Assembly: GCF_000020225.1 (NCBI RefSeq)
Contig: NC_010655.1
Span: 2,580,001-2,612,000, forward strand
Direction: 5' to 3'
From: Akkermansia muciniphila ATCC BAA-835
GTDB lineage: Bacteria > Verrucomicrobiota > Verrucomicrobiia > Verrucomicrobiales > Akkermansiaceae
Length of the DNA: 32,000 bases
Made by a program: the position numbers and the translations under genes. The notes beneath the pieces were generated by a model. The model worked only from the letters and a program-made list of their open reading frames with translations, ran no database searches and was not told where the DNA came from. Shown one piece after another: positions 1,523 to 20,839 of this stretch; the first letter of the stretch is position 1, and every line of letters begins with the position of its first letter.

Positions 1523-2527
1523 ATGGAACCCGTCACCCCCACTCTGCCCGACGACGACGTAGCCGCCATTGACCGGCTCGGCGCCATTTACAAGGAGCTT
1601 TCCTCGGAATTGAGCAAAATGATCATTGGCCAGCAACGCGTCGTGGAGCTGCTGAGCATCGCCCTGTTTTCCCGCGGGCATGCCCTCCTGATGGGAGTTC
1701 CGGGCCTGGCGAAGACGCTGCTGGTCAGTTCCGTGGCAAAAACGCTGGACCTTAGTTTCAACCGCATCCAGTTCACGCCGGACCTGATGCCCGCGGACAT
1801 TACCGGCACGGACATCATCCAGGATGATTCCGCCGGCGGCAAGCGCCAGTTCGAGTTCATCAGGGGGCCCGTGTTCGCCAACATCGTGCTGGCGGACGAA
1901 ATCAACCGCGCCCCCGCCAAAACCCAGTCCGCCCTGCTGGAGGCCATGCAGGAGCGCCGCGTCACCGTCATGGGCCGCACCTTCACCCTGCTCCCCCCCT
2001 TTTTCGTGCTTGCCACCCAAAACCCCATTGAACAGGAAGGCACCTACCCCCTGCCGGAAGCCCAGCTGGACCGCTTCATGTTCCTGATTGAAGTGGACTA
2101 CCCCACGGAGGAGGAGGAAATGCGCATCGCCCGGGAAACCACCGGAACCCGGAGCGAGGAACTCAAGCACATCCTCTCCGGGGAGGAAATCATCTTTTAC
2201 CAGGATCTGGTGCGCCGCGTTCCCGTTCCGGAACATATTTACGAGTATGCCGTGAAACTGGTGCGCGCCACCCGCCCCACCCTGGAAACTTCCCCGGAAT
2301 GGGTAAAGCAGTATGTAGCCTGGGGCGCAGGCCCCCGCGCCGTCCAGTTCCTGATTCTTGGGGCCAAGACCCGCGCCGCTCTCCAGGGCAGCTACATCGT
2401 CCGCAGGGAAGACATAGACGCCATTGTGGAACCTGTGCTGATGCACCGCGTGGTCACCAACTTCGCCGCGGAATCCCAGGGCATCACGCCCCGTAAGGCC
2501 GTGGCGCGCCTGGCGGCGGAAATCTGA
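1523..2527 (+). CDS. MoxR-family AAA+ ATPase
   Basis: 334 aa. Walker A GVPGLAKT, Walker B VLADEINRA, and the typical MoxR length and C-terminal lid. Confidence 0.9.
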   Translation: MEPVTPTLPDDDVAAIDRLGAIYKELSSELSKMIIGQQRVVELLSIALFSRGHALLMGVPGLAKTLLVSSVAKTLDLSFNRIQFTPDLMPADITGTDIIQDDSAGGKRQFEFIRGPVFANIVLADEINRAPAKTQSALLEAMQERRVTVMGRTFTLLPPFFVLATQNPIEQEGTYPLPEAQLDRFMFLIEVDYPTEEEEMRIARETTGTRSEELKHILSGEEIIFYQDLVRRVPVPEHIYEYAVKLVRATRPTLETSPEWVKQYVAWGAGPRAVQFLILGAKTRAALQGSYIVRREDIDAIVEPVLMHRVVTNFAAESQGITPRKAVARLAAEI

Positions 2528-2565
2528 CCGCCGTCCCGGCATCATCAATCCCCTTTCCCTACCCC

Positions 2566-3468
2566 ATGAAATACCTGAATCACAACCTGCTCAGCCGCCT
2601 GGGGAACCTTCCCCTGGAAGCGCGCCACAGCATGACGGGGAACGTATCCGGCCGCCATAGAAGCGCCAGCCGCGGCTCCTCCGTGGAATTTGCGGAATAC
2701 CGCAAATACGTGGCCGGAGACGATACACGCCGTCTGGACTGGAAAGCGTATGCACGGTCGGACAGGTATTACATCAAGGAGTTTGAAGCGGATACCAACC
2801 TGCGCGCCTACATCGTCATGGATCTTTCCGGCTCCATGAATTATCATCCGGAGCAGGTGGAGACCAAGTATATGCGCGCGTGCAGGCTGGCGGCCAACCT
2901 GGCTTACATTGCCATCCGGCAGGGAGACGCGGTGGGACTGAGTTTTGCCCGGCAGACGAAGGACGGCGCCGCGCTGCACATCCCCGCCTCCCGCCGCCCC
3001 GCCCACCTGAACGTGCTCATCAGCCAGATGGACACGCATTCTCCGCAGGGGGAGACCGTCCTTCCCGATACCCTGCATGAACTGGCGGAACGCGTCGGCC
3101 GCCGCGCCCTGGTGTTGATTTTCTCAGACCTGTTCACAGATACGGCGGAGCTTAAAAACGCCCTCCGCCACCTCCATTTCCGCAAGCATGACATAGCCGT
3201 ATTCCATCTGGTGGACCAGTTGGAAATAGATTTTGACTTTGACCGCCCCATCCGCTTCGTGGACATGGAAGGCGGCGGCTCCCTGATTACGGAGCCGGAC
3301 CTTATCGCGGACGAGTACCGGGCTATCGTGGCCAGCTATCTGGAAGAAACGCGCCGGATCTGCACGGATATCAATGCGGACTACCGCCTGGTCAGAACCG
3401 GAGATTCCCTGGAAGACGTGCTGACCGGCTTCCTGATGGGACGTCAGAAAAAGAAGGCGGCCGGATAA
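2566..3468 (+). CDS. DUF58 protein (vWA-like, usual MoxR partner)
   Basis: 300 aa. DUF58 signature YVAGDDTRRLDWKAYARSDRYYIKEF and a MIDAS-like MDLSGSM. Lies directly downstream of the MoxR gene. Confidence 0.85.
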   Translation: MKYLNHNLLSRLGNLPLEARHSMTGNVSGRHRSASRGSSVEFAEYRKYVAGDDTRRLDWKAYARSDRYYIKEFEADTNLRAYIVMDLSGSMNYHPEQVETKYMRACRLAANLAYIAIRQGDAVGLSFARQTKDGAALHIPASRRPAHLNVLISQMDTHSPQGETVLPDTLHELAERVGRRALVLIFSDLFTDTAELKNALRHLHFRKHDIAVFHLVDQLEIDFDFDRPIRFVDMEGGGSLITEPDLIADEYRAIVASYLEETRRICTDINADYRLVRTGDSLEDVLTGFLMGRQKKKAAG

Positions 3469-6959: not shown

Positions 6960-8510
6960 ATGCCTTCCCCATCCCAGGACACGGTAGCCTGCACTTGCCC
7001 GTCATGCGGCAACCTCTTTGCCGTGAAGGCGTCTTTTCTGGGACGCCAGGTAAAATGCCCCATCTGCACCGCTTCAGTCACAGCCAGGCAGGAAGCAAAG
7101 CCCAGGCCGGAAACGGAAAAACAGGACGCCGCCCCCTGCCTCTGCCATGTTTGCGGCAATCCCTTTGCCGTCAGGGCCGCCTGCGTAGGCAGCCGTGTGG
7201 AATGCCCCGTCTGCCACTCCACCGTCACGGCCGTCAAACGGGAAGAAGCACTTTCAACATTCCCGGGCCGGACGCCTGAAGTTGCAAAGAAAGCGCCCGG
7301 AAATCCGAAACAACCGGCTATTCCGTCATCTGCCGCCGGTGTTCCGCACACTTCCGCGTACTCCGCTCCGCATACACCGCTCGCACCAAAGAAAAAGACG
7401 GACAGACGGACCATTTCCGTTCACGGGCCTACCACTCCGGGCCCCAATAAATCCACGACAAAAATCCGTAAAAGGAAAGAGGGAAACGCCGCTCCGGCCA
7501 TTGCCGCGCCACGCTGCGCCGCCCTGGCCCCGGAAGAACCGGAATACCGCACTGCCGCCGCGGACCCCATGCGCAGCGAACGCCGGCCCACTTGGCATAT
7601 ATGGCTTTTTGTCGCGGGACTGGTTCTTTCCCTTCTGGGCGTGTTCATGTTCCTGCGCGGGAGGGATATGGAAGCGGAAAACTCCAAACTTCTGAATATC
7701 TCAGACCGGTTCGTGGATCATGAAGCGCTCTTTTCACAGGAAGTGAATAAAGACCTGCTGGAGCAATTGCAGCAGAGGGAGCGGCAATACCGGCTCATAG
7801 CCCACAGCCGCAGGGAGGAAGACCGGAAGGCGGAATCCATTTCCCCCCATATCACGGCGGCCATGAATGAACTGGCCCTTTACTGCATGGCGGAATCGGA
7901 TGAAGAGAGGCTCAACTACGTGATGAATCCCGCAGCCGTAGCTCCCAAAATGGCCTCTTGGGCCTCCTACGGCCAATACAAGGACTACCTGCCCCAGGAA
8001 GCGGGCAGAAGCTCCAAAAACGGGGACCTGCTCCAAATCACCGTGCTGATGGACGACAACACTATCCGCCCGGCGGTTTTCCTGTATGACCGGAATTCAG
8101 GAAAATGGAAGCTGGACTGGGAAGCCTGGGAGGGCTATTCCCCCATGCTTCCGGCGGAGCTGGAAGCCAAAAAGCCCTCCACCCCCGTTCCCGTCAGAAT
8201 CATCCTAAGCATGTCCGGCATTTATCAGCCCCCTTTCCTGGAGGAATCCTCCGCGGAAAGCTACCGCAACACGTCATATCTCAACTTCACCCTTGAGTTC
8301 CCCAACGGGGAACGCCTGAATGCGTACGTGGACAGGTATTCCCCGCTGGCCCTGGAACTGACCAGGCTGCTTTACAACGGCCCCGTGCGCACCTGCGTGC
8401 TCATCCGCTATCCGGAAGACCTGCCCGGCAACCGGGCCGTTATTATTGACCAGCTTCTGCACTCCGGCTGGATGAGCGACGCCACCCGCAGGCTTCTTCC
8501 CCCCCAATAA
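6960..8510 (+). CDS. Membrane protein with two N-terminal MJ0042-type zinc-ribbon repeats
   Basis: Tandem repeats CPSCGNLFAVKASFLGRQVKCPICTASVTA and CHVCGNPFAVRAACVGSRVECPVCHSTVTA. These are followed by a Pro/Lys-rich linker, one TM helix (WHIWLFVAGLVLSLLGVFMFL) and a ~270-aa C-terminal domain of unknown family. Confidence 0.7.
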   Translation: MPSPSQDTVACTCPSCGNLFAVKASFLGRQVKCPICTASVTARQEAKPRPETEKQDAAPCLCHVCGNPFAVRAACVGSRVECPVCHSTVTAVKREEALSTFPGRTPEVAKKAPGNPKQPAIPSSAAGVPHTSAYSAPHTPLAPKKKTDRRTISVHGPTTPGPNKSTTKIRKRKEGNAAPAIAAPRCAALAPEEPEYRTAAADPMRSERRPTWHIWLFVAGLVLSLLGVFMFLRGRDMEAENSKLLNISDRFVDHEALFSQEVNKDLLEQLQQRERQYRLIAHSRREEDRKAESISPHITAAMNELALYCMAESDEERLNYVMNPAAVAPKMASWASYGQYKDYLPQEAGRSSKNGDLLQITVLMDDNTIRPAVFLYDRNSGKWKLDWEAWEGYSPMLPAELEAKKPSTPVPVRIILSMSGIYQPPFLEESSAESYRNTSYLNFTLEFPNGERLNAYVDRYSPLALELTRLLYNGPVRTCVLIRYPEDLPGNRAVIIDQLLHSGWMSDATRRLLPPQ

Positions 8511-8540
8511 TTGAAAATCAAGAATCGGTTCCCGCTTTCC

Positions 8541-9929
8541 ATGAGTTCCAAAGCACTAGCGCAAACACAGGACAAAGCCCTCCAACTCAACCTGGCTTCC
8601 ACCATTTACGGCACCTTTGCGGAAATCGGAGCCGGACAGGAAACGGCCAACTGGTTTTTCCGGGCATCCGGAGCCGCCGGAACAGTGGCCAAAACCATTT
8701 CCGCCTATGACATGACCGTCAGCGACACCCTGTACGGGCCGGTCAAGCGCTACGTTTCTGAAGAACGCCTGAAAGGCATGCTGGACTACGAATTTACCCA
8801 GCTCATCAACCGCCTGGGCCCCCAGCGCGGCAAAGACACCCGCTTCTTTGCCTTCTGCAATACGGTAAAAGTCAAAGGCTACCGGGACAACGGCCCCTGG
8901 CACGGCTGGATAGGGGTGCGCTTCCAGCTGAAACCGGAGGCAAAACCGTCCGACCTGATTATTCACGTTCGCCTGAACGACCCGGACCACGACCGCCAGA
9001 TGAAGGACCTGGGCATCCTGGGCGTCAACATCCTGCACGCCGTCTTTTTCAAAAGGGACCGTCTGGAGGAATTCATTGAATCCCTGGTGGACAATCTGGA
9101 TCCCCGGCTGGTGGAAATAGATGTCGTCCGTTTTGAAGGCCACGGTTTTTCCATGGTGGACAACCGTCTTTTCGCGCTCCAGCTCGTCCAGTCCGGCCTG
9201 ACGCCGGCCACCCTGTTCCTGGCGAACGGCCAGGTGGCCCAGGCGGCGGATGTGCTGTACAAGCGCCCCATCGTGTTGATGAGGGGCAGTTTCAACCCCG
9301 TCTGCAATCTGCACCTGGAAGTCATGGCCCAGGTGAAAAAAACCTTCCTCTCCCACATCAATGAGACGCAGGCGGACCGCTGCATGGAAATTTGTGAAAT
9401 ATCCATGAATAACCTGCTCCGCGGCGATGATGTGGACCATCTGGAATTCCTGGACAGGGCGGACAGCCTCAAGGCTCTCGGCAAAAACGTTCTGATTACC
9501 AAAATGGCCCGTTTCGACAACCTGTCCGGGCTGCTGGCGCGCTACACGAGAGAACCCATAGCCATCGCCCTCTCCATCGGCCTGCTGAATGAGCTGTTCA
9601 AGGAAAAATGGACGGAGGACATTCCCGGAGGCATTCTGGAATCCTTCGGACGCACCTTCCAGAACAAAACGCGCCTGTACGTCTCCCCGTGGCTCAACCG
9701 CAAATCCGGGGAATTCGTCACGGCACGCACTTTCCGCGCGCCGGAACAATACGTGCACCTGTACCAGCACTTCCTGGCGAACGGCCTGGTGGTGGACGTG
9801 CCCTTTTTCAATGAATTCCTGCTGCGCCACACGCCGCGGGACATCCAGCGCATGATCGCTGCGGATGAAGACATCTGGAAAACGCTGGTTCCGGAGGAAG
9901 CGCACCGTTCCGCCCTCCACTTCCGCTGA
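8541..9929 (+). CDS. Conserved hypothetical protein with a nucleotidyltransferase-like (NadD/cytidylyltransferase-fold) segment
   Basis: Long ORF with normal amino-acid composition. Conserved-looking N-terminal block YGTFAEIGAGQETANWFF. The internal PIVLMRGSFNPVCNLHL resembles the GxFxPxHxGH strand-loop of adenylyltransferases but is degenerate. ATG at 8541 is preferred over the TTG at 8511. Confidence 0.6.
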   Translation: MSSKALAQTQDKALQLNLASTIYGTFAEIGAGQETANWFFRASGAAGTVAKTISAYDMTVSDTLYGPVKRYVSEERLKGMLDYEFTQLINRLGPQRGKDTRFFAFCNTVKVKGYRDNGPWHGWIGVRFQLKPEAKPSDLIIHVRLNDPDHDRQMKDLGILGVNILHAVFFKRDRLEEFIESLVDNLDPRLVEIDVVRFEGHGFSMVDNRLFALQLVQSGLTPATLFLANGQVAQAADVLYKRPIVLMRGSFNPVCNLHLEVMAQVKKTFLSHINETQADRCMEICEISMNNLLRGDDVDHLEFLDRADSLKALGKNVLITKMARFDNLSGLLARYTREPIAIALSIGLLNELFKEKWTEDIPGGILESFGRTFQNKTRLYVSPWLNRKSGEFVTARTFRAPEQYVHLYQHFLANGLVVDVPFFNEFLLRHTPRDIQRMIAADEDIWKTLVPEEAHRSALHFR

Positions 9930-13122: not shown

Positions 13123-14607
13123 ATGAGACATGCCATTCTTCCCTCCATGTGCGCTGTTGCCGTCGCAGCCTCCTGCAGTCCCACCCTTGCCCAACAGGCG
13201 GCTCCCGCTGCGGCGGCTTCCCCTGCTTACCTGAACACGGAACGCGGTCTGCGCGTGAAAACTCTGGAAGGCAGGGAAATAAGCCCCAGCCTGATGAAAG
13301 GAATGCGCCCGGAAGAACAAATCACCAAAAGGACGCCCGGCGTTCCCACCAGGCCCAGCGTACTGCTTCAGCATGAAGGCGGAACTTCCGCTCCCGGCCT
13401 GGAATGGTTTGCGGCCAGGCCCCTTAAAATGATGCCGTACCTGGACAGTTCCTACGTTTTCGGCAATACCTGTGCGGAACCGAACGCCTGGATACGCGAA
13501 GACATGATTTCCACCGGAGCGCAAAAGCTCAAGACCGCTCTCTCCAGATACGGCATTACTTATTCCGCCCAGTTCGGATTCAACTACACGGGGCTGACGG
13601 GCGGCGGCCTGAACGGAAAAACGGATTTCCCCTCCTACAATGGTTCCCTGCTGACCAATATCACCATCTTCCGCAATCATTCCACGGGCAGCGGCCTGTA
13701 CCTGGCCTCCGAGTTCGACTTCGGCAACGGCTTTGACTTCAATGAAGGCAGTAAAGGCCCCAAAACCACGCTGGGCTCCCTCCAGAACCCCACCAGCTCC
13801 TTCCAGGGCCCGGCCCCCCACCTGAGCAACCTGAGCCTGGCATGGGTGGGAGCGGGAGGAAAGCTTCTGCTGATGGCGGGCCAGCTGGACACCACCAACT
13901 ACATGGACCACAACGCTTACGCCAATTCCCATAACAATAACCTCACCAACAGCGTTTTCGGCAATAATCCCGTACTCCCCCTGACTGATAATTCCCTGGG
14001 ATTCCATTTCGCGTGGCAGCCAACCACCTCCTTTTACGTGATGGGAGCCACTGCCGCCAATAACATGGCTCAAAACCACAATCCTTTCCGGAACCTGAAT
14101 TCCGACAATTGGACGAACGTGCTTGAATTCGGCTACGTGGCGGAAGATTTTTGCAGCATGGGCCCCGGCGTGTACCGCCTCCAGCCCTTTTTCACCACCA
14201 GCAACGGTGAAAACGGGGGCGGCGTGGCCGTAAACTTCCAGCAGCAGCTGGGCCGCAGCAGCCACTTGGGGTGGTTCTTCCGCGGCGGCTGGGCAAGCGA
14301 TGACGCAGCCACGCTGACCGGCGTACGCTGCGCGGCCACCACAGGGCTGGTGCTTCTTTCCCCCTTCCGGGGAAAGGGCGCATCCAATGACGGATACCTG
14401 GGCCTCGGTTTCCTCTGGCAGCAGGGGGCTAAAAAGAACGGCCCGTACGTGAACAGGAATGAATACGGCATTGAATTGACGTATGTGGCCCAGGTGACGC
14501 CCACCATGACTCTCCAGCCTGATATTCAGCTTGTCAAGAATCCCGTCAACGGCCGCAGAGGGCAAACGGCGGTGGTTTTCCAGATCCAGAACGTCTGGTC
14601 CTGGTAA
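13123..14607 (+). CDS. Outer-membrane porin, OprB (carbohydrate-selective) family-like
   Basis: Signal peptide MRHAILPSMCAVAVAASCSPTLAQQ. Alternating beta-strand-like composition rich in G/N/Y/F, with a C-terminal aromatic residue (VWSW) typical of beta-barrel OMPs. The OprB assignment is from overall resemblance and is not verified. Confidence 0.6.
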   Translation: MRHAILPSMCAVAVAASCSPTLAQQAAPAAAASPAYLNTERGLRVKTLEGREISPSLMKGMRPEEQITKRTPGVPTRPSVLLQHEGGTSAPGLEWFAARPLKMMPYLDSSYVFGNTCAEPNAWIREDMISTGAQKLKTALSRYGITYSAQFGFNYTGLTGGGLNGKTDFPSYNGSLLTNITIFRNHSTGSGLYLASEFDFGNGFDFNEGSKGPKTTLGSLQNPTSSFQGPAPHLSNLSLAWVGAGGKLLLMAGQLDTTNYMDHNAYANSHNNNLTNSVFGNNPVLPLTDNSLGFHFAWQPTTSFYVMGATAANNMAQNHNPFRNLNSDNWTNVLEFGYVAEDFCSMGPGVYRLQPFFTTSNGENGGGVAVNFQQQLGRSSHLGWFFRGGWASDDAATLTGVRCAATTGLVLLSPFRGKGASNDGYLGLGFLWQQGAKKNGPYVNRNEYGIELTYVAQVTPTMTLQPDIQLVKNPVNGRRGQTAVVFQIQNVWSW

Positions 14608-14692: not shown

Positions 14693-15913
14693 ATGAAGCG
14701 CATTCAGCAACCTTCCATGCAGGAGGCGGAGCAGGCCTCCCTGAATCATGAGATTTTAAATACATGGCGTCCCGGGGAAACTCTGGGGGAACACATGGAG
14801 CGCCGCGGCGTCAGCCGGCGCGAATTCAACAAGTGGTGTCTGAAAATGATCTCCCTGATGGGCGTTGCCACTGTAACGGGCGGCATTTCCAACGCCCAGG
14901 AGATTGCGGACAAGATGGCCGCATTGAAACGTCCCGTAGTCATCTGGCTCCAGCTTCAGGAATGCACCGGATGCCTGGAAAGCACTATCCGCAGCTATAA
15001 CGAGGAAATCGGGGACATGGTGCTTTCCGCCGTCTCCATGCCTTACGTGGAACTGCTGATGGCCCCTTCAGGAGAGGCCGCCAATCAGGCTCTGGAAGAC
15101 GCGATCAGGGAGCCCCACATCCTCGTCATCAACGGTTCCGTTCCGGTCAATGACGGCGGGGTGTACTGCACCGTGGCCGGAGATACCGTGGAGAACATGC
15201 TGCGCCATTGCGCGGAAAACGCCTCTCATATCCTGGCCGTGGGTTCGTGCGCGTACTTCGGCTCCATCCAGGCCGCCCGTCCCAACCCCACCGGGGCCGT
15301 GGGCATCCGGGACATCCTGACGGACCGCACGGTCATCAACGTGCCCGGCTGCCCGCCCATCGGGGACGTGATTACGGCCGTCATCATGTACATCCTTACA
15401 TTTGACCGCGCCCCGGAATGCGACCTGGAGTCGCGCCCGCTGATGGCATACGGCACCCGCATCCACAATAATTGCCCGCGCCGCGCCCATTTCGACGCCG
15501 GACAGTTCGTCAACGTGTTTGACGACGAGAACGCGCGGGAATGCTTCTGCCTGTACAAGGTGGGCTGCAAGGGCCCGGATACGTTCTCTCCCTGCCCCAT
15601 CGTCAAATGGAATGGCGGCGTCAGCTTCCCCATCCAGTCCGGCCACCCGTGCATCGGCTGTACGGAGCTGTACTTCTTTGACCGCATGACTCCGTTTTAC
15701 AAGACGCTGCCGAACGTGAACGGCTTCGGCGTGGAAGCCTCCGCCAACATCATCGGGGCTGTGGGCGTAGCCGGCGCCGGAGCGGCAATCGCCGCCCATG
15801 CCGTGGGCTCCGCCATTCATTACAGGAAGCAGCACATGAAGGAGGAAGCAAACGTCTCCCTGCCCGCCTTCGGGGACGCTCCCGGCTCGCCCGACAAGGA
15901 AATTGAAGAATAG
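14693..15913 (+). CDS. [NiFe] hydrogenase small subunit (group 1, Tat-exported, C-terminal membrane anchor)
   Basis: Twin-arginine motif GVSRREFNKWCL, proximal-cluster motif QECTGCLES, further Cys clusters (GSCA, GCPP, NCPRR, CKGP, CIGC) and a C-terminal hydrophobic helix. The ATG at 14693 is chosen because the track start at 14531 overlaps the porin gene. Confidence 0.9.
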   Translation: MKRIQQPSMQEAEQASLNHEILNTWRPGETLGEHMERRGVSRREFNKWCLKMISLMGVATVTGGISNAQEIADKMAALKRPVVIWLQLQECTGCLESTIRSYNEEIGDMVLSAVSMPYVELLMAPSGEAANQALEDAIREPHILVINGSVPVNDGGVYCTVAGDTVENMLRHCAENASHILAVGSCAYFGSIQAARPNPTGAVGIRDILTDRTVINVPGCPPIGDVITAVIMYILTFDRAPECDLESRPLMAYGTRIHNNCPRRAHFDAGQFVNVFDDENARECFCLYKVGCKGPDTFSPCPIVKWNGGVSFPIQSGHPCIGCTELYFFDRMTPFYKTLPNVNGFGVEASANIIGAVGVAGAGAAIAAHAVGSAIHYRKQHMKEEANVSLPAFGDAPGSPDKEIEE

Positions 15914-15939: not shown

Positions 15940-17697
15940 ATGAGCAATTACACATCAGCGGACGTTCCGGAATCCAGCCGGGTGGTCATTGACCCGGTAA
16001 CGCGCATCGAAGGCCACCTGCGGGTGGAAATGGAGGCCGGGGACGGCGTCATCAAAAATGCCTGGACGTCCACCACGCAGTACCGTGGCATTGAGGTGAT
16101 CGCCTGCAAGCGGGACCCCCGGGACGTTTGGGCTTTTGTGGAACGCATCTGCGGCGTCTGCACGGGTACGCACGCCATCGCGGCCCTGGCTGCGGTGGAA
16201 GACGCGCTCCAATACCCGGTGCCCGTCCAGGCCCGCCTCATGCGAGACCTGGTCAGCGGAGCCCTGGGCATCCAGGACCACGTCATCCATTTTTACCAGC
16301 TCCAGGCCATGGACTGGGTGGACGTGATGTCCGCCCTGAAGGCGGACCCCGCGGAAACCGCCGCCATCGCCAAGTCCCTTTCCGACTGGCCCCTGTCCTC
16401 CGCCGCGTATTTCGCCGGAGTGCAGAAGAAGCTGAAGGACTCCATCGCCTACGGGCAATATTCCATCTTTACGAACGGCTACTGGGGCCATCCGGCCTAC
16501 AAGCTGCCGCCGGAGGTGAATCTGCTGGGCGTGGCGCATTATCTCCAGGCCCTGGTCTGGCAACGGGACATGATCAAAATCCACACCATCCTGGGCGGCA
16601 AGAACCCGCACCCGAACTTCCTGGTCGGCGGCATGGCCTGCGCCATCAACATGAACAATGACCAGGCCATCAACCAGTTTTCCCTGAGCTACCTGAAGCA
16701 GCTGGTGCAAACCTGCCACGATTTCATTCACAAAGTATATTATCCGGACATTGTAGCCATCGCCGGATTTTATAAGGACTACGCCCACATTGGCGCGTCC
16801 AACCCCAACTTTTTCTGCACTGGGGCTCCGTCTGAAATCAACACGGGCGCCCCCGCCGGCAAAGGCATGATCAAGCCCGGCGTGCTTCTGAATGGGGATT
16901 ACAGGAACGTGCTTCCCTTTGACCAGGACAAGATCAGGGAATTCGTCACCAGCTCCTGGTACAGGTATACGGAAGGCAGGGACGCGGGCCTGGCTCCGTA
17001 TGACGGGGAGACGAATGCGGACTACAACGGCCCCAGGCCGCCCTACAAGTGGCTTTCCGACCACCCGCAGTACACCTGGGTGAAAGCCCCGCGCTATGAC
17101 GGCCACGCGATGGCCGTGGGTCCGAACGCCCGCATGATGATTGGCTACGCCCAGGGGGTTCCCGCCATCGTGGAACGGGTGGATGCCGCCTGCGACAAGC
17201 TGGGCCTGCCGCGCGACAACGCCTTCATGAACTCCACGCTGGGCCGCGTATACGGCCGTGCGCTGGACGCCCTGATCAACGTGGACATGATGGTGGACCA
17301 GCTCCAGGAAATGACGGACCGCATCAGGAACGGGGAAACCTCCACCTTCAACCCGGAAAAATGGGAACCGGAAACCTGGCCCTCCTCCTGCAAGGGCGTG
17401 GGCTGGGTGGAAGCGCCCCGCGGCAGCCTGAGCCACTGGGTGCGGATTGAAAACGGCCAGACGGTGAATTACCAGGCCGTAGTCCCCAGTACATGGAACA
17501 GTTCCGGACGGGACGCGGCGGGGCAGATGGGGCCATATGAATATTCCCTGGCCCATACCGGGAAACACCCGCTGGTGGACCCCTCCCGCCCGGTGGAGCC
17601 CCTGCGCACCATTCACAGCTATGACCCGTGCCAATCCTGCGCCGTCCATTTGTTTGACGAAGAAGGGGAGGCCATTCTGACCAGACAGGACCCGTGA
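15940..17697 (+). CDS. [NiFe] hydrogenase large subunit
   Basis: N-terminal RIEGH and RICGVCTGTHA motifs. The C-terminal DPCQSCAVH is followed by a 15-aa extension (LFDEEGEAILTRQDP), the segment removed by the maturation protease. Confidence 0.95.
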   Translation: MSNYTSADVPESSRVVIDPVTRIEGHLRVEMEAGDGVIKNAWTSTTQYRGIEVIACKRDPRDVWAFVERICGVCTGTHAIAALAAVEDALQYPVPVQARLMRDLVSGALGIQDHVIHFYQLQAMDWVDVMSALKADPAETAAIAKSLSDWPLSSAAYFAGVQKKLKDSIAYGQYSIFTNGYWGHPAYKLPPEVNLLGVAHYLQALVWQRDMIKIHTILGGKNPHPNFLVGGMACAINMNNDQAINQFSLSYLKQLVQTCHDFIHKVYYPDIVAIAGFYKDYAHIGASNPNFFCTGAPSEINTGAPAGKGMIKPGVLLNGDYRNVLPFDQDKIREFVTSSWYRYTEGRDAGLAPYDGETNADYNGPRPPYKWLSDHPQYTWVKAPRYDGHAMAVGPNARMMIGYAQGVPAIVERVDAACDKLGLPRDNAFMNSTLGRVYGRALDALINVDMMVDQLQEMTDRIRNGETSTFNPEKWEPETWPSSCKGVGWVEAPRGSLSHWVRIENGQTVNYQAVVPSTWNSSGRDAAGQMGPYEYSLAHTGKHPLVDPSRPVEPLRTIHSYDPCQSCAVHLFDEEGEAILTRQDP

Positions 17698-18866
17698 AAA
17701 CGACTCTTATCGATAACGACCTCACCCTGGCGGTGGAGGATGCCATTCCGGCCAGTCCGGTGTACGCTCCGGAAGAAATCCTGGCTCTGGCCGTGTGCGC
17801 CTCCCCCAACGGCAGCAGGGACGCGGGAGACCTGGCCCTGCTCCATGCCGCGCGGGAACGCGGCATAACCCTCCCTTACGCCCAGCGGGAAAACTCCTGG
17901 GAGGCTCCCTCCCGGGAAAGGCCGTACAGCACGGCTGTTCTGAAAGCCGCAGACAAGGCGGACGCCTCCCCTTTCATGGTAGCCCGCGGCAATCTGAAGG
18001 CGCTGGAAAAACTGTGCGAAGTCAGCTCCCTGGAAAAGGAGCGCATGAACAAGGCCTTTGAAGAGCATTCCCCCTCCGGCTTTGAACCCGTGGCCGTGGC
18101 CGTCCACCGGTCCGGCGCGCCGTGGCGCCTGTTGGGCGTCGTGCCCATGCACGCCATGAGGGATGTGCGCCGCCTCTCCATGGCCAAGGCCAATTTCCGC
18201 TATTTCCACGTCTGGGACTGGCCTCTGCGCGTGCTGCACTGGACGTGGGTGCTCTGCATCATCGGCCTGTCCGCCACAGGCATCTGCATCGCGGAAGGGT
18301 GGTTCCTGAAAATGGGGGATCTGCACGGGGCTTTCCAATTCGGAACGCTCCGCTTCGTGCATTACGCGCTGGGGTGGATTCTGGTGGTGGTGATGATGCT
18401 GCGTTTTTCCTGCTTTTTCATGGCCTCCAACAAATACCAGAGTTTCCGGGCCCTGTTCCCCGTTTCCAGACAGGAGTGGAAGGATTTGTACGCCACAGCG
18501 GTGGACTACCTGTTCGCCCGCAGTTATGACGGCCCCCGCTACATCGGCCACAATCCCCTGCAGCAGTGGACATACACGGGCGTGTACGTCCTGTTCACCA
18601 CCATGGTGGTGACCGGGCTGGCCCTGTATGCCCTGTATGAGCCGCGCCACTGGTTCTACCGCTGGTTCATGCCGCTGAACGACCTGATAGGCATTCCGTA
18701 CGTGCGCCTGGTGCATTTGATCGGCATGTGGTGCTTCATCATCTTCGCCATGATCCACGTGTACCTTTCCATCCTTTCCGGGAACGTGGACCGGGACGGC
18801 ACCATCTCCTCCATGTTCAGCGGCGGACGATGGCTGCGCAAGGGCGTCAAATTCCGGGATGAATAA
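17694..18866 (+). CDS. cybH: Ni/Fe-hydrogenase b-type cytochrome subunit with a ~165-aa N-terminal extension
   Basis: Residues ~165-390 show the HyaC/CybH pattern (FHVWDWPLRVLHWTWV, FVHYALGW, GHNPLQQWTY, LVHLIGMW..MIHVYL; four TM helices with conserved His). The GTG start overlaps the large-subunit stop (GTGA). The N-terminal part is described under findings. Confidence 0.85.
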   Translation: MKTTLIDNDLTLAVEDAIPASPVYAPEEILALAVCASPNGSRDAGDLALLHAARERGITLPYAQRENSWEAPSRERPYSTAVLKAADKADASPFMVARGNLKALEKLCEVSSLEKERMNKAFEEHSPSGFEPVAVAVHRSGAPWRLLGVVPMHAMRDVRRLSMAKANFRYFHVWDWPLRVLHWTWVLCIIGLSATGICIAEGWFLKMGDLHGAFQFGTLRFVHYALGWILVVVMMLRFSCFFMASNKYQSFRALFPVSRQEWKDLYATAVDYLFARSYDGPRYIGHNPLQQWTYTGVYVLFTTMVVTGLALYALYEPRHWFYRWFMPLNDLIGIPYVRLVHLIGMWCFIIFAMIHVYLSILSGNVDRDGTISSMFSGGRWLRKGVKFRDE

Positions 18867-18887: not shown

Positions 18888-19433
18888 ATGAAATTGGAGC
18901 CATACACGGAAGAACTGCGGGGCTGCCCCGTGAAGGGAAATGCCTATCCCGTGCTCGTGCTGGGCATCGGAAACCCGCTCATGGGGGACGACGGCGCAGG
19001 CGTGGAGCTGGCCCACCGCCTCCAGGAACGGGACTACGGCCCGCTGGTCCACGTGGAGGAAGGGGGAACGCAGGGCATGACCCTGCTTCCCCTGCTGGAA
19101 GATGCGGACACGCTCATCCTGCTGGACGCCGTCAGGACGGGGGCCCTGCCGGGAACCGTCGTCACGCGCAGCCGGGAAGAACTGCCGCGCCACTTTTCCC
19201 GCGTTATGTCTCCCCACCAGATAGGCATGAAGGAAGTGCTGGGGGCGGCCCAGCTGTGCGGCACCCTGCCGCGCGCCATCACGCTGGTGGGAGTGGAGGC
19301 CCTGCATACGGATTTCTGCCGCCCCATGTCCGCGGAGGTGCAGGAAGCCTTGCCGAAGGCGCTGGACACGGCGGAGGCCCTCATCGCCCGCGCCCTGGCG
19401 GAACATCAGGCCCGGAAAAACGCCCATGCATGA
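18888..19433 (+). CDS. Hydrogenase maturation endopeptidase (HyaD/HybD family)
   Basis: VLVLGIGNPLMGDDGAG, LILLDAV and SPHQIG motifs. Position is immediately after the structural genes. Confidence 0.9.
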   Translation: MKLEPYTEELRGCPVKGNAYPVLVLGIGNPLMGDDGAGVELAHRLQERDYGPLVHVEEGGTQGMTLLPLLEDADTLILLDAVRTGALPGTVVTRSREELPRHFSRVMSPHQIGMKEVLGAAQLCGTLPRAITLVGVEALHTDFCRPMSAEVQEALPKALDTAEALIARALAEHQARKNAHA

Positions 19434-19767
19434 AGTAGGCATCATGGAAGGCGCGCTGGACATGGCCCGGCGACTTATGGAAAAACGCGGAGGAAACAGG
19501 CTGAGGCGCGTGCACATGACCATCGGCAGCCTGAGCGGCGTGGTGCCGGAAGCCCTTCAATCCGCCTTCCTGGCCCTGAAAGACTCGTATGCGGCGCAGG
19601 ATGCAGCCCTGGACGTCGCCTGGGTGGAGGCCGTGTGCCGCTGTGATGCATGCCGGGCGGATTTTTCCTTTACGGAACACGGCTACATCTGCCCCGGCTG
19701 CGGAGAACCGGCCCTGGCCATCCTGCGCGGGCGGGAACTGGAGCTGACCCGTGTGGAGTGGGAATGA
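19426..19767 (+). CDS. hypA: Hydrogenase nickel incorporation protein HypA
   Basis: 113 aa. The MHE N-terminus (nickel site) and CRCDAC...CPGCG zinc site are present. The start overlaps the protease stop (ATGCATGA). Confidence 0.9.
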   Translation: MHEVGIMEGALDMARRLMEKRGGNRLRRVHMTIGSLSGVVPEALQSAFLALKDSYAAQDAALDVAWVEAVCRCDACRADFSFTEHGYICPGCGEPALAILRGRELELTRVEWE

Positions 19768-19891: not shown

Positions 19892-20839
19892 ATGAGCAAT
19901 ATCAACCCATTCATTCTAACAGGGATGATGCCGCTTTCAGCCTCATCCATGAACCGTGTCTCCTACATGTGCCCGGTCACCATCAGCAATGATGTAGTGC
20001 AGGGCCAGACGGACATTCAGGATTCCCTTACCGTTGATTCCGGCGGAAATCTTTACATCATCAACGCTCCTGTTTACGTGGGCGGCCCCAACCAGCCGGA
20101 CCACGGGCACCGCACCGCCCACCTCGTCATCCGGAACGGAGGCGCCATGACGCTCCTGGGCAATCTGCCGGACCATATGACCGTTTTCCTGGGGGACAAA
20201 GCCAACGGCAGCCTGGAAATCAACGGCGGCCGCCTTCTGATGGGCCAGGGGCGCATTCAGGGCGCCAGGGAGCATGAAGGCAGAATCGCCATGACGGACG
20301 GCTGGCTCTTCGCCTCGGAAGTGGATCTGCCGGCGGAGGGCTCGGAACTCGTGATCAGGCACGGCCTGATGCGTATCAGAAAACTCTCCGGCAATGCATC
20401 CACCCGCATTTACGGAGGCGTTCTGCACGTAAAGGAGGAAGCCCGCGCCAGCCGCATCCATCTGATAGACGACGGCGTGCTGCTGCTGGGCAGCGTCACC
20501 AGCCAGCCTTCCGCGGACGTCATGGCCGGAGCGGGCATCAACTTCCGCGGGGACGGCGGAGCGCTGGTAATCCGCATCCCCCACCCGGAAAACGCTCTGA
20601 CGCGCACGCGGGAAGCGGAACATGTCTTTGACGAACTGCTCCGGAGGGGCAAGCTCTTTCATGACAGTGAACCCATGACCAGCTTCCAGGGGTTCCATAT
20701 GAGGGAGTTCACGGGGCATGACGGACTGGCGTACGCCGCGCTGCGCCCCTCCGCCCAGCTGAACGCGGAACAGAATCAGGTTACCCGCCTGCTCCATACG
20801 TTCATGTACGGCGGCAGTGAAAAGGACATGCCCATCTGA
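19892..20839 (+). CDS. Hypothetical protein with beta-helix-like internal repeats, no signal peptide
   Basis: 315 aa. Recurrent segments of the type GGxLxI / GGxLLM / DGxLLL at ~25-30 aa spacing. No family recognised. Confidence 0.55.
   Translation: MSNINPFILTGMMPLSASSMNRVSYMCPVTISNDVVQGQTDIQDSLTVDSGGNLYIINAPVYVGGPNQPDHGHRTAHLVIRNGGAMTLLGNLPDHMTVFLGDKANGSLEINGGRLLMGQGRIQGAREHEGRIAMTDGWLFASEVDLPAEGSELVIRHGLMRIRKLSGNASTRIYGGVLHVKEEARASRIHLIDDGVLLLGSVTSQPSADVMAGAGINFRGDGGALVIRIPHPENALTRTREAEHVFDELLRRGKLFHDSEPMTSFQGFHMREFTGHDGLAYAALRPSAQLNAEQNQVTRLLHTFMYGGSEKDMPI

Follow-up and report, generated by a model that had tools for sequence, protein, structure and literature searches.

The cytochrome b subunits of membrane-bound [NiFe] hydrogenases (HyaC, CybH, HupC; PF01292, TIGR02125; structures 4GD3 and 6G94) have four transmembrane (TM) helices and four conserved histidines, are encoded after the large-subunit gene, and in canonical members begin about 10 residues before the first helix (TM1). 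P-type ATPases hold ATP with a nucleotide-binding (N) domain, whose N and C termini adjoin at a hinge. N domains only position ATP, as catalysis requires the P and A domains, and N domains isolated from the pump are still able to bind nucleotides. The Hya hydrogenase of Geobacter sulfurreducens, a member of group 1f, has been implicated in oxidative-stress defence. Here we describe a 390-aa protein in which a hydrogenase cytochrome b and an N domain are joined. It is encoded in a stretch of 32,000 nt from Akkermansia muciniphila ATCC BAA-835 (NC_010655.1, positions 2,580,001 to 2,612,000 of the forward strand; hereafter the window, whose own numbering is used), in an open reading frame (ORF) with a GTG start at 17694..18866 on the plus strand. 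The protein shares with the canonical subunits the four TM helices, the four conserved histidines, the position of the gene after that of the large subunit and a structural match to 4GD3, but where these have some ten residues it carries a 156-residue folded domain, which we place in the cytoplasm and call the N-module, followed by a linker. The Akkermansia hydrogenase has likewise been classed as group 1f (PMC12578642; bioRxiv 10.64898/2026.06.24.733704), a designation used here as a literature assignment; group 1f is a polyphyletic, poorly studied class (PMC6896113), and the H2 metabolism of A. muciniphila 'remains to be investigated' (PMC12578642).

The N-module comprises residues 1-156 including two hinge strands (17694..18161, plus strand). 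An original prediction, made from the sequence of the window, had proposed that the cytochrome b is fused to a degenerate P-type ATPase N domain, and a curated hidden Markov model (HMM), a family profile and structure prediction now agree on this. The NCBIfam model TIGR01647 (plasma-membrane proton-efflux P-type ATPase) aligned residues 4-152 with its positions 296-439 (E = 3e-7). With a profile of 21 N-terminal modules (A2) we then searched the full set of PDB sequences and 1.84 billion representative proteins. Among the PDB sequences it matched Pma1 of S. cerevisiae (residues 387-532, E = 3.4e-12), Pma1 of N. crassa (residues 387-532, E = 3.2e-11), AHA2 of A. thaliana (residues 339-475, E = 1.2e-9) and the N domain of MgtA (3GWI, E = 0.034). 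The matched segment of Pma1 starts just past D378KTGT and stops just before MDPPR, which bears out the proposal that the module spans exactly the N-domain insertion, with both hinge strands. The search of the 1.84 billion proteins yielded 905 matches, headed by about a dozen cytochrome b fusions or fragments. Next, from E = 3.5e-22, came proteins of 800-1200 aa aligned at about residues 320-480, which carry E1-E2_ATPase and Hydrolase Pfam domains and show the succession CSDKTGTLT...DAID...FxPFDPxxKRTEA...KGAPQ...GFRxLGVA...WxFLGxLPLFDPPR. The closest relatives outside hydrogenases are named 'plasma-membrane proton-efflux P-type ATPase' and come from Methylocystis and Competibacteraceae. Two of the closest bacterial type IIIA H+-ATPases, P0131 (1189 aa) and P0132 (1205 aa), are fusions themselves; one ends in a HlyD-like membrane-fusion domain, the other begins with an AAA_17/18 kinase-like domain.

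A superposition on an ATPase N domain, which the original prediction had suggested, came out in its favour. AlphaFold2 (AF2) predicted a structure for the module alone with a pLDDT of 93.1 and a pTM of 0.86, and in a Foldseek search of the PDB with this model the top 50 of 50 matches were P-type ATPases, with Pma1 and AHA2 first (query-normalised TM-score, TMq, 0.69-0.71). We conclude that residues 1-156 form a separate, independently folding module homologous to the N domain of type IIIA P-type H+-ATPases, and that the cut by which the domain was excised falls at the two hinge strands. With these ATPases (Pma1 7VH5, 1MHS and 7NXF; AHA2 5KSD; bacterial TIGR01647 members) the module has in common the fold (TMq about 0.7), the order of the blocks, the hinge boundaries and the signatures DxxD, G(F/Y)RxxxVA and WxFxGxxP. 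Unlike them, it lacks the P-domain setting, DKTGT, DPPR and the A and pump TM domains, it always has Arg for the Lys of KGAP, it has lost the stacking Phe and it is attached N-terminally to an unrelated membrane protein. Structures of isolated N domains (MgtA 3GWI; CopA P+N 3A1E; ATP7A 2KMV) matched the module weakly and show the fold as an autonomous unit; those constructs are laboratory fragments of pumps, whereas the Akkermansia domain is naturally excised and joined to a redox protein.

The similarity is visible only with a profile, which is probably why public annotation does not flag the N-module. The Pfam match to PF13246 that had been expected was absent even at E <= 1, and a single-sequence phmmer search of residues 1-165 against the PDB returned noise only. 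These two empty searches are what could be cited for a chance or compositional resemblance to ATPase motifs, an explanation that we consider extremely improbable in view of profile E-values of 3e-12 (PDB) and 3e-22 (1.8 billion proteins) and of the 50 P-type ATPases among the top 50 Foldseek matches.

The remainder of the protein is a hydrogenase cytochrome b. Its di-haem core (residues 173-390 and stop codon, 18210..18866, plus strand) was matched by Pfam Ni_hydr_CYTB (PF01292) at residues 173-377, with 90.9 bits at a cut-off of 30.1, and by TIGR02125 at residues 173-379 against profile positions 2-208 of 212, with 120.8 bits, just below the equivalog cut-off of 121.5; Foldseek matched the core to the cytochrome b of E. 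coli Hyd-1 (4gd3, 6g94). Because the TIGR02125 alignment begins at profile position 2, members of the family normally have hardly any sequence ahead of TM1, and the leading 165-172 residues are extra. The original prediction had rightly noted this late beginning of the TM core, which it put at about residue 165 (Ni_hydr_CYTB begins at 173). The four TM helices of the AF2 model lie at residues 176-200, 213-243, 288-312 and 334-361. The family alignment (A1) shows no variation at His182, His223, His341 and His355, which by homology would be the haem ligands. The gene is part of a compact [NiFe]-hydrogenase operon on the plus strand of the window, consisting of the genes for the small subunit, the large subunit, the 390-aa cytochrome b, HycI and HypA. 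It comes directly after the genes for the two subunits, small and large, of a Tat-exported hydrogenase, an order also found in five other lineages, and its product is the quinone-reducing di-haem cytochrome b anchor of a periplasmic, membrane-bound [NiFe] hydrogenase of the uptake type. A basic, flexible linker (residues 157-172, 18162..18209, plus strand; AF2 pLDDT <50 at 161-172) joins the N-module to TM1.

Several observations show that the N-terminal region is translated. The large-subunit gene (15940..17697, plus strand; 585 aa; Pfam NiFeSe_Hases, E = 7e-204) and the cytochrome b ORF share the four nucleotides GTGA (17694..17697, plus strand), so that the start codon GTG lies at 17694-17696 and the stop codon TGA at 17695-17697; ORF, coordinates and overlap had been given correctly in the original prediction. 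The sequence AGGA is found 3 nt 5' of the GTG. Gene calls in the complete genomes CP029705.1 and CP174100.1 give an identical 390-aa protein that begins at this GTG, and the exact protein is present in >31,000 assembly blocks. Homologues from Akkermansia through Geobacter are alike in length (384-398 aa) and begin at the same position, the start codon there being ATG in A. glycaniphila and in another Akkermansia metagenome-assembled genome (MAG), and the 4-nt overlap with the large-subunit gene recurs in Geomonas oryzae (L084) and in a Verrucomicrobiota MAG (L085). Among Akkermansia species the ratio of nonsynonymous to synonymous substitution rates (dN/dS) was 0.11-0.20 over codons 2-156 and 0.05-0.09 in the cytochrome b core, and the N-module evolves 2-3 times faster than the core. 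These sequence comparisons show a module that is translated and under purifying selection. The view that the region is not a junk 5' stretch is borne out by the start conserved between Akkermansia and Geobacter, the overlap in three lineages and the dN/dS values.

The annotated start varies among GenBank records, with lengths of 377 aa in some A. muciniphila and of 305, 360 and 439 aa in Geobacter anodireducens and Geobacter sp. 60473, and these annotations truncate or extend the N-module. Such differences in length could be cited in favour of an internal Met (152, 155 or 163) as the real start, with the 450 nt before it untranslated or decaying. We regard an annotation artefact of this kind as hardly credible: the internal Met residues are not conserved, protein-level conservation reaches to Geobacter with the same start, the 4-nt overlap is conserved, codons 2-156 are under the constraint given above and the predicted fold is confident.

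For a comparison of the motifs, 113 true modules and 36 type IIIA ATPase segments were aligned with MAFFT; four apparent family members with Lys at the KGAP position proved to be truncated P-type ATPases, not modules, and were excluded. Five ATPase blocks had been traced through the N-terminal region in the original prediction, of which four were reproduced by HMM and MAFFT (residues 43-46, 68-83, 97-99 and 144-154). The remaining one, MKTTLIDNDLTL, had been equated with DKTGTLTxNxMxV, the initiator replacing the phosphorylated Asp, and is not supported: residues 1-9 vary freely (MK.., MT.., MS..), the DKTGTLT columns are gaps in 111 of the 113 modules, and no significant alignment is seen before about residue 10-11, the counterpart of K387 in Pma1.

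All blocks lie on the plus strand. The stretch D43-A-G-D46-L-A48-L-L-H-A-A53 (17820..17852) corresponds to the ATPase helix DAIDxA(I/F)L; D46 is invariant in the 113 modules and the 36 ATPases alike, and 108 of the modules have D43. The block S68-W-E-A-P72-S-R-E-R-P77-Y-S-T-A-V-L83 (17895..17942) is the counterpart of FxPFDPxxKRTEA and is partly eroded, Phe being replaced by Pro72 and Lys by Pro77. Its stacking-Phe column, with Phe in 35 of 36 ATPases, holds Pro in 72, Leu in 26, Ala in 7 and Phe in 2 of the modules, Phe being lost in 111 of 113; the Lys column holds Arg in 45, Pro in 26 and Lys in 13 modules, compared with Lys in 28 and Arg in 6 of the ATPases. A97-R98-G99 (17982..17990) corresponds to the KGA(PE) motif, and here R98 and G99 are found in 113 of 113 modules, while 35 of 36 ATPases have Lys. 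In G129-F-E131-P-V-A-V-A136 (18078..18101), the equivalent of GFRxLGVA, the conserved Arg is Glu131 in the Akkermansia protein; this column is Arg in 36 of 36 ATPases and in 70 modules, with Val in 20, Glu and Lys in 5 each and Gln in 3. The Geobacter-type clade keeps the Arg, and the Verrucomicrobiota have Val, Glu or Gln. The return hinge strand W144-R-L-L-G148-V-V-P151-M-H-A154-M-R156 (18123..18161) matches WxFxGxxPxxDPPR, with W144 in 112 and G148 and P151 in all 113 modules. Its DPPR has become A-(T/M)-R, the Asp column holding Ala in 90, Val in 16 and Leu in 6 modules and the PR being deleted in 111 of 113.

The nucleotide contacts of the N domain, which we take by position to be those of SERCA E442, F487, K492, K515 and R560, would then correspond in the Akkermansia protein to D46 (E442), Pro72 (F487), Pro77 (K492), R98 (K515, the KGAP Lys) and Glu131 (R560). 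The canonical set is incomplete, with only the acidic residue (D46) unchanged. Arg or Lys stands at the K492-equivalent position in about half of the modules, and the Geobacter clade keeps the R560-equivalent Arg together with a basic residue at the K492 equivalent. That key residues are changed, so that the module may be non-catalytic, had been proposed before on the grounds of the Lys-to-Arg exchange and the altered DPPR; the former is now seen in 113 of 113 modules, the latter is indeed replaced, the stacking Phe is lost as well, and in the protein of the window so are the K492 and R560 equivalents. Homology to an ATP-binding domain might still suggest residual ATPase or kinase-like activity at the hydrogenase anchor. 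We consider a catalytically active module very improbable, as the P domain (the DKTGT Asp, TGDN, GDGxND) and the A domain (TGES) are absent, no Hydrolase or E1-E2_ATPase domain was found by Pfam, and 111 of the 113 modules have gaps at DKTGTLT and at the PR of DPPR. Further features of a functional pump are missing, namely the transport domain of 6-10 helices and a Cation_ATPase Pfam match. By its sequence the protein is thus evidently not a P-type ATPase, and its module would be able neither to hydrolyse ATP nor to be phosphorylated. Catalysis, mis-annotation and chance similarity are effectively excluded.

As to the location of the module, it has no signal peptide, and basic residues (K+R) are concentrated in the linker region 157-175 (4), loop 2 (6) and the C-tail (6), a total of 16, versus 1 and 2 in loops 1 and 3 (total 3). 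The lack of a signal peptide, the basic linker and the positive-inside rule together indicate an N-in topology with the module on the cytoplasmic face, in keeping with what is known of the hydrogenase cytochrome b family. The module would thereby be tethered beside the cytoplasmic loops and the C-tail of the cytochrome b, probably near the cytoplasm-side haem/quinone site of related enzymes. As the termini of an N domain adjoin at the hinge, the face that is turned towards the P domain in ATPases should here face the cytoplasmic surface of the cytochrome b.

The Asp and the Arg-Gly that are fixed at pocket positions across modules of about 25% identity suggest that the site is still used for something. 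Overall, the protein is probably best explained as a group 1f anchor bearing an N-domain-derived cytoplasmic cap with a ligand-sensing or regulatory role. The most likely mechanism, in which we place somewhat less than even confidence, is a non-catalytic ligand sensor that tunes the flow of electrons from H2 to menaquinone. The module would have kept a remodelled ligand pocket, marked by the invariant Asp46 and Arg98-Gly99, which occupy adenine-holding positions of P-type ATPases; this pocket would respond to an adenine nucleotide or to some related anionic metabolite, the module would dock differently on the cytochrome b depending on whether the pocket is occupied, and the change in docking would adjust electron delivery from H2 to menaquinone to the energy or redox state of the cell. 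That the module is a true adenylate or metabolite sensor gating transmembrane electron transfer through the di-haem cytochrome b appears possible to us, though doubtful.

A number of points weigh against a ligand-sensing cap. A Pfam scan of residues 1-165 gave nothing, neither PF13246 nor PF00702. The canonical ATP-binding signature is eroded; binding of ATP in the canonical way is doubtful, above all in Akkermansia, whose version may have no affinity for ATP. Asp46 and Arg98, though invariant, could form a structural salt bridge instead of a ligand site. The inter-domain geometry of the full-length AF2 model is unreliable (pTM 0.47, linker pLDDT <50), and ligand binding and function of the module are a guess put forward from the sequence. 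A conserved partner gene was sought in the operons of five lineages and none was found. This last result also speaks against a purely structural or scaffolding cap, which would stabilise or oligomerise the hydrogenase-cytochrome b complex or dock a cytoplasmic partner without any small molecule, Asp46 and Arg98 being a buried salt bridge. Such a scaffold, which we tentatively keep as an unlikely but serious alternative, would fit the loss of most canonical nucleotide contacts, above all in Verrucomicrobiota (Phe to Pro, K492-equivalent to Pro, R560-equivalent to Glu, Val or Gln), the finding that the conserved blocks are largely the core-forming blocks of the ATPases, and the faster evolution of the module. 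However, the Lys-to-Arg exchange in 113 of 113 modules and the invariant Asp and Gly at exact pocket positions exceed what fold maintenance usually entails, and the Geobacter clade retains its 4 of 5 charged contacts.

The fused form was found in about 36 species (GTDB contigs, one genome per species). Relatives were found with the full-length alignment; the alignment of the N-module alone holds no conserved 7-10-mer. Carriers are Akkermansia and other Verrucomicrobiota, Geobacteraceae, Desulfuromonadaceae, one Desulfovibrio MAG, one Polyangiaceae MAG and unclassified Deltaproteobacteria, and the N-module marks only part of group 1f. Identity to the protein of the window ranges from 98 to 53% within Akkermansia, is about 48% in other Verrucomicrobiota and about 40% at 98% coverage in Geobacter, Geomonas, Citrifermentans and Desulfuromonadaceae. 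The unusual architecture envisaged in the original prediction is therefore real as a fusion, but it is a conserved family trait and not a one-off. G. sulfurreducens has the fused form too: the species encodes a 390-aa member, possibly the one named hyaB/GSU0121, in the same 90% cluster as the homologue P0058, which is about 40% identical to the protein of the window over 98% of its length. Modules of the Geobacter clade keep more basic pocket residues than that of Akkermansia.

The same boundaries, the same deletions and the Lys-to-Arg switch in all members (113 of 113) argue for one ancient fusion event, fixed in the ancestor of a cytochrome b clade that today occurs in Verrucomicrobiota, Geobacteraceae and some further lineages. 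The sequences point to a single fusion with a bacterial type IIIA ATPase as the probable donor, which may have been followed by transfer of the operon between phyla. The nearest cytochrome b relatives without the module, which match from about residue 155-172 on, come from Gemmatimonadota, Vicinamibacterales, Anaerolineae and the Bacillus group, and at a Gemmatimonadales locus the cytochrome b gene, with a short N terminus, lies right after that of the large subunit. A divergent module hidden in a long Gemmatimonadales ORF was considered and rejected, since this ORF is a high-GC read-through over the large-subunit gene, the real protein having its start immediately in front of TM1. More divergent fusions of 395, 415 and 424 aa exist, and the contigs examined for the 395- and 424-aa forms carry small subunit-large subunit-cytochrome b operons. 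In the operon of the divergent fusion P0129 (L091, 4261-8126) the large subunit is in pieces, with 32 aa and 517 aa encoded before the cytochrome b and a further NiFeSe_Hases fragment of 327 aa after it, followed by a full hypA-B-F-C-D-E set.

The module also occurs without the cytochrome b core. A locus of a Geomonas MAG (L087, 8001-8675; WP_324079661.1) encodes a 224-aa protein consisting of the N-module and one TM1-like helix. The locus is syntenic with the hydrogenase locus of G. oryzae and is flanked by a PilY1 homologue on its upstream side and a small ferredoxin on its downstream side; the genes for the small and large subunits are gone, and so is most of that for the cytochrome b. Free-standing forms of 223-224 aa were found on four contigs (L087, L088, L089 and L090, the last at 416-1087). 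A second version, of 223 aa and 52% identical, keeps DPLDLALL, IARG, G(F/W)R and WRFLGYVP. As the two versions are only 52% identical and yet keep all motifs, they do not look like decaying relics. The four contigs hint that a membrane-tethered module may be maintained without a hydrogenase of its own.

The module goes unmentioned in Pfam, in the precomputed annotations of 120 homologues and in NCBI, JGI and UniRef names; Gene3D and SUPERFAMILY lay outside this scope, and an automated match there is possible. The names carried by family members are 'Ni/Fe-hydrogenase b-type cytochrome subunit', 'cytochrome b/b6 domain-containing protein', 'DUF4405 domain-containing protein' and 'hypothetical protein'. 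A full-text literature search found no description of the fusion, and the literature on G. sulfurreducens Hya, as far as it was accessible, does not mention the N-module. We are thus dealing with a known enzyme subunit that has undergone an undescribed, conserved domain acquisition. The fusion may link the use of hydrogen to the energy state of the cell, and for the widespread and poorly understood group 1f hydrogenases a conserved cytoplasmic domain offers a testable handle on how and when they are switched. To the P-type ATPase field it presents a natural experiment: cut out exactly at its hinge and parted from its catalytic partners, an N domain has persisted within another protein for hundreds of millions of years. 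It also concerns the annotation of thousands of database entries labelled only 'cytochrome b', some of them with truncated starts. If the module is a sensor, the group 1f enzymes of Akkermansia and Geobacter would be the first respiratory hydrogenases known to be under allosteric energy-charge control, the module would be the first natural P-type ATPase N domain serving as a stand-alone sensor outside a pump, and the free-standing, membrane-anchored Geomonas copies would be sensors acting in trans.

The other genes of the operon are as follows. The [NiFe]-hydrogenase small subunit (14693..15913, plus strand; 406 aa; Pfam Oxidored_q6 and NiFe_hyd_SSU_C) has, as its translation shows, the Tat signal SRREFNK and is anchored by a C-terminal TM segment. 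The mechanical ORF from TTG 14531 runs over the end of the upstream OprB gene, and gene calls in identical genomes (e.g. L001, 5000-6220) begin at ATG 14693 with MKRIQQ... ahead of SRREFNK; ATG 14693 rather than TTG 14531 is likely to be the true start. Downstream of the cytochrome b gene lie those for a HycI/HyaD-type hydrogenase maturation endopeptidase (18888..19433, plus strand; Pfam HycI, E = 6e-24) and the nickel metallochaperone HypA (19426..19767, plus strand; Pfam HypA, E = 2e-26). No hypB-F genes were found within 17 kb around the operon. Directly upstream of the operon is a gene for an OprB-family carbohydrate porin (13123-14607, plus strand), in the place of which the Verrucomicrobiota MAG (L085) has an NrfH/NNT-like multihaem cytochrome c. 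Right after hypA a 315-aa ORF without Pfam match (19892-20839, plus strand) is kept in 4 of 4 Akkermansia loci with identical genes (L001-L004). Farther upstream in the window, two adjacent ORFs of 516 and 472 aa without Pfam match (6960-8510 and 8511-9929, plus strand) lie 3' of a PBP1-type transglycosylase/transpeptidase gene, and at 1523-3468 (plus strand) a MoxR-type AAA_3 ATPase is followed by a DUF58/vWA protein, which is the usual MoxR-vWA pair.

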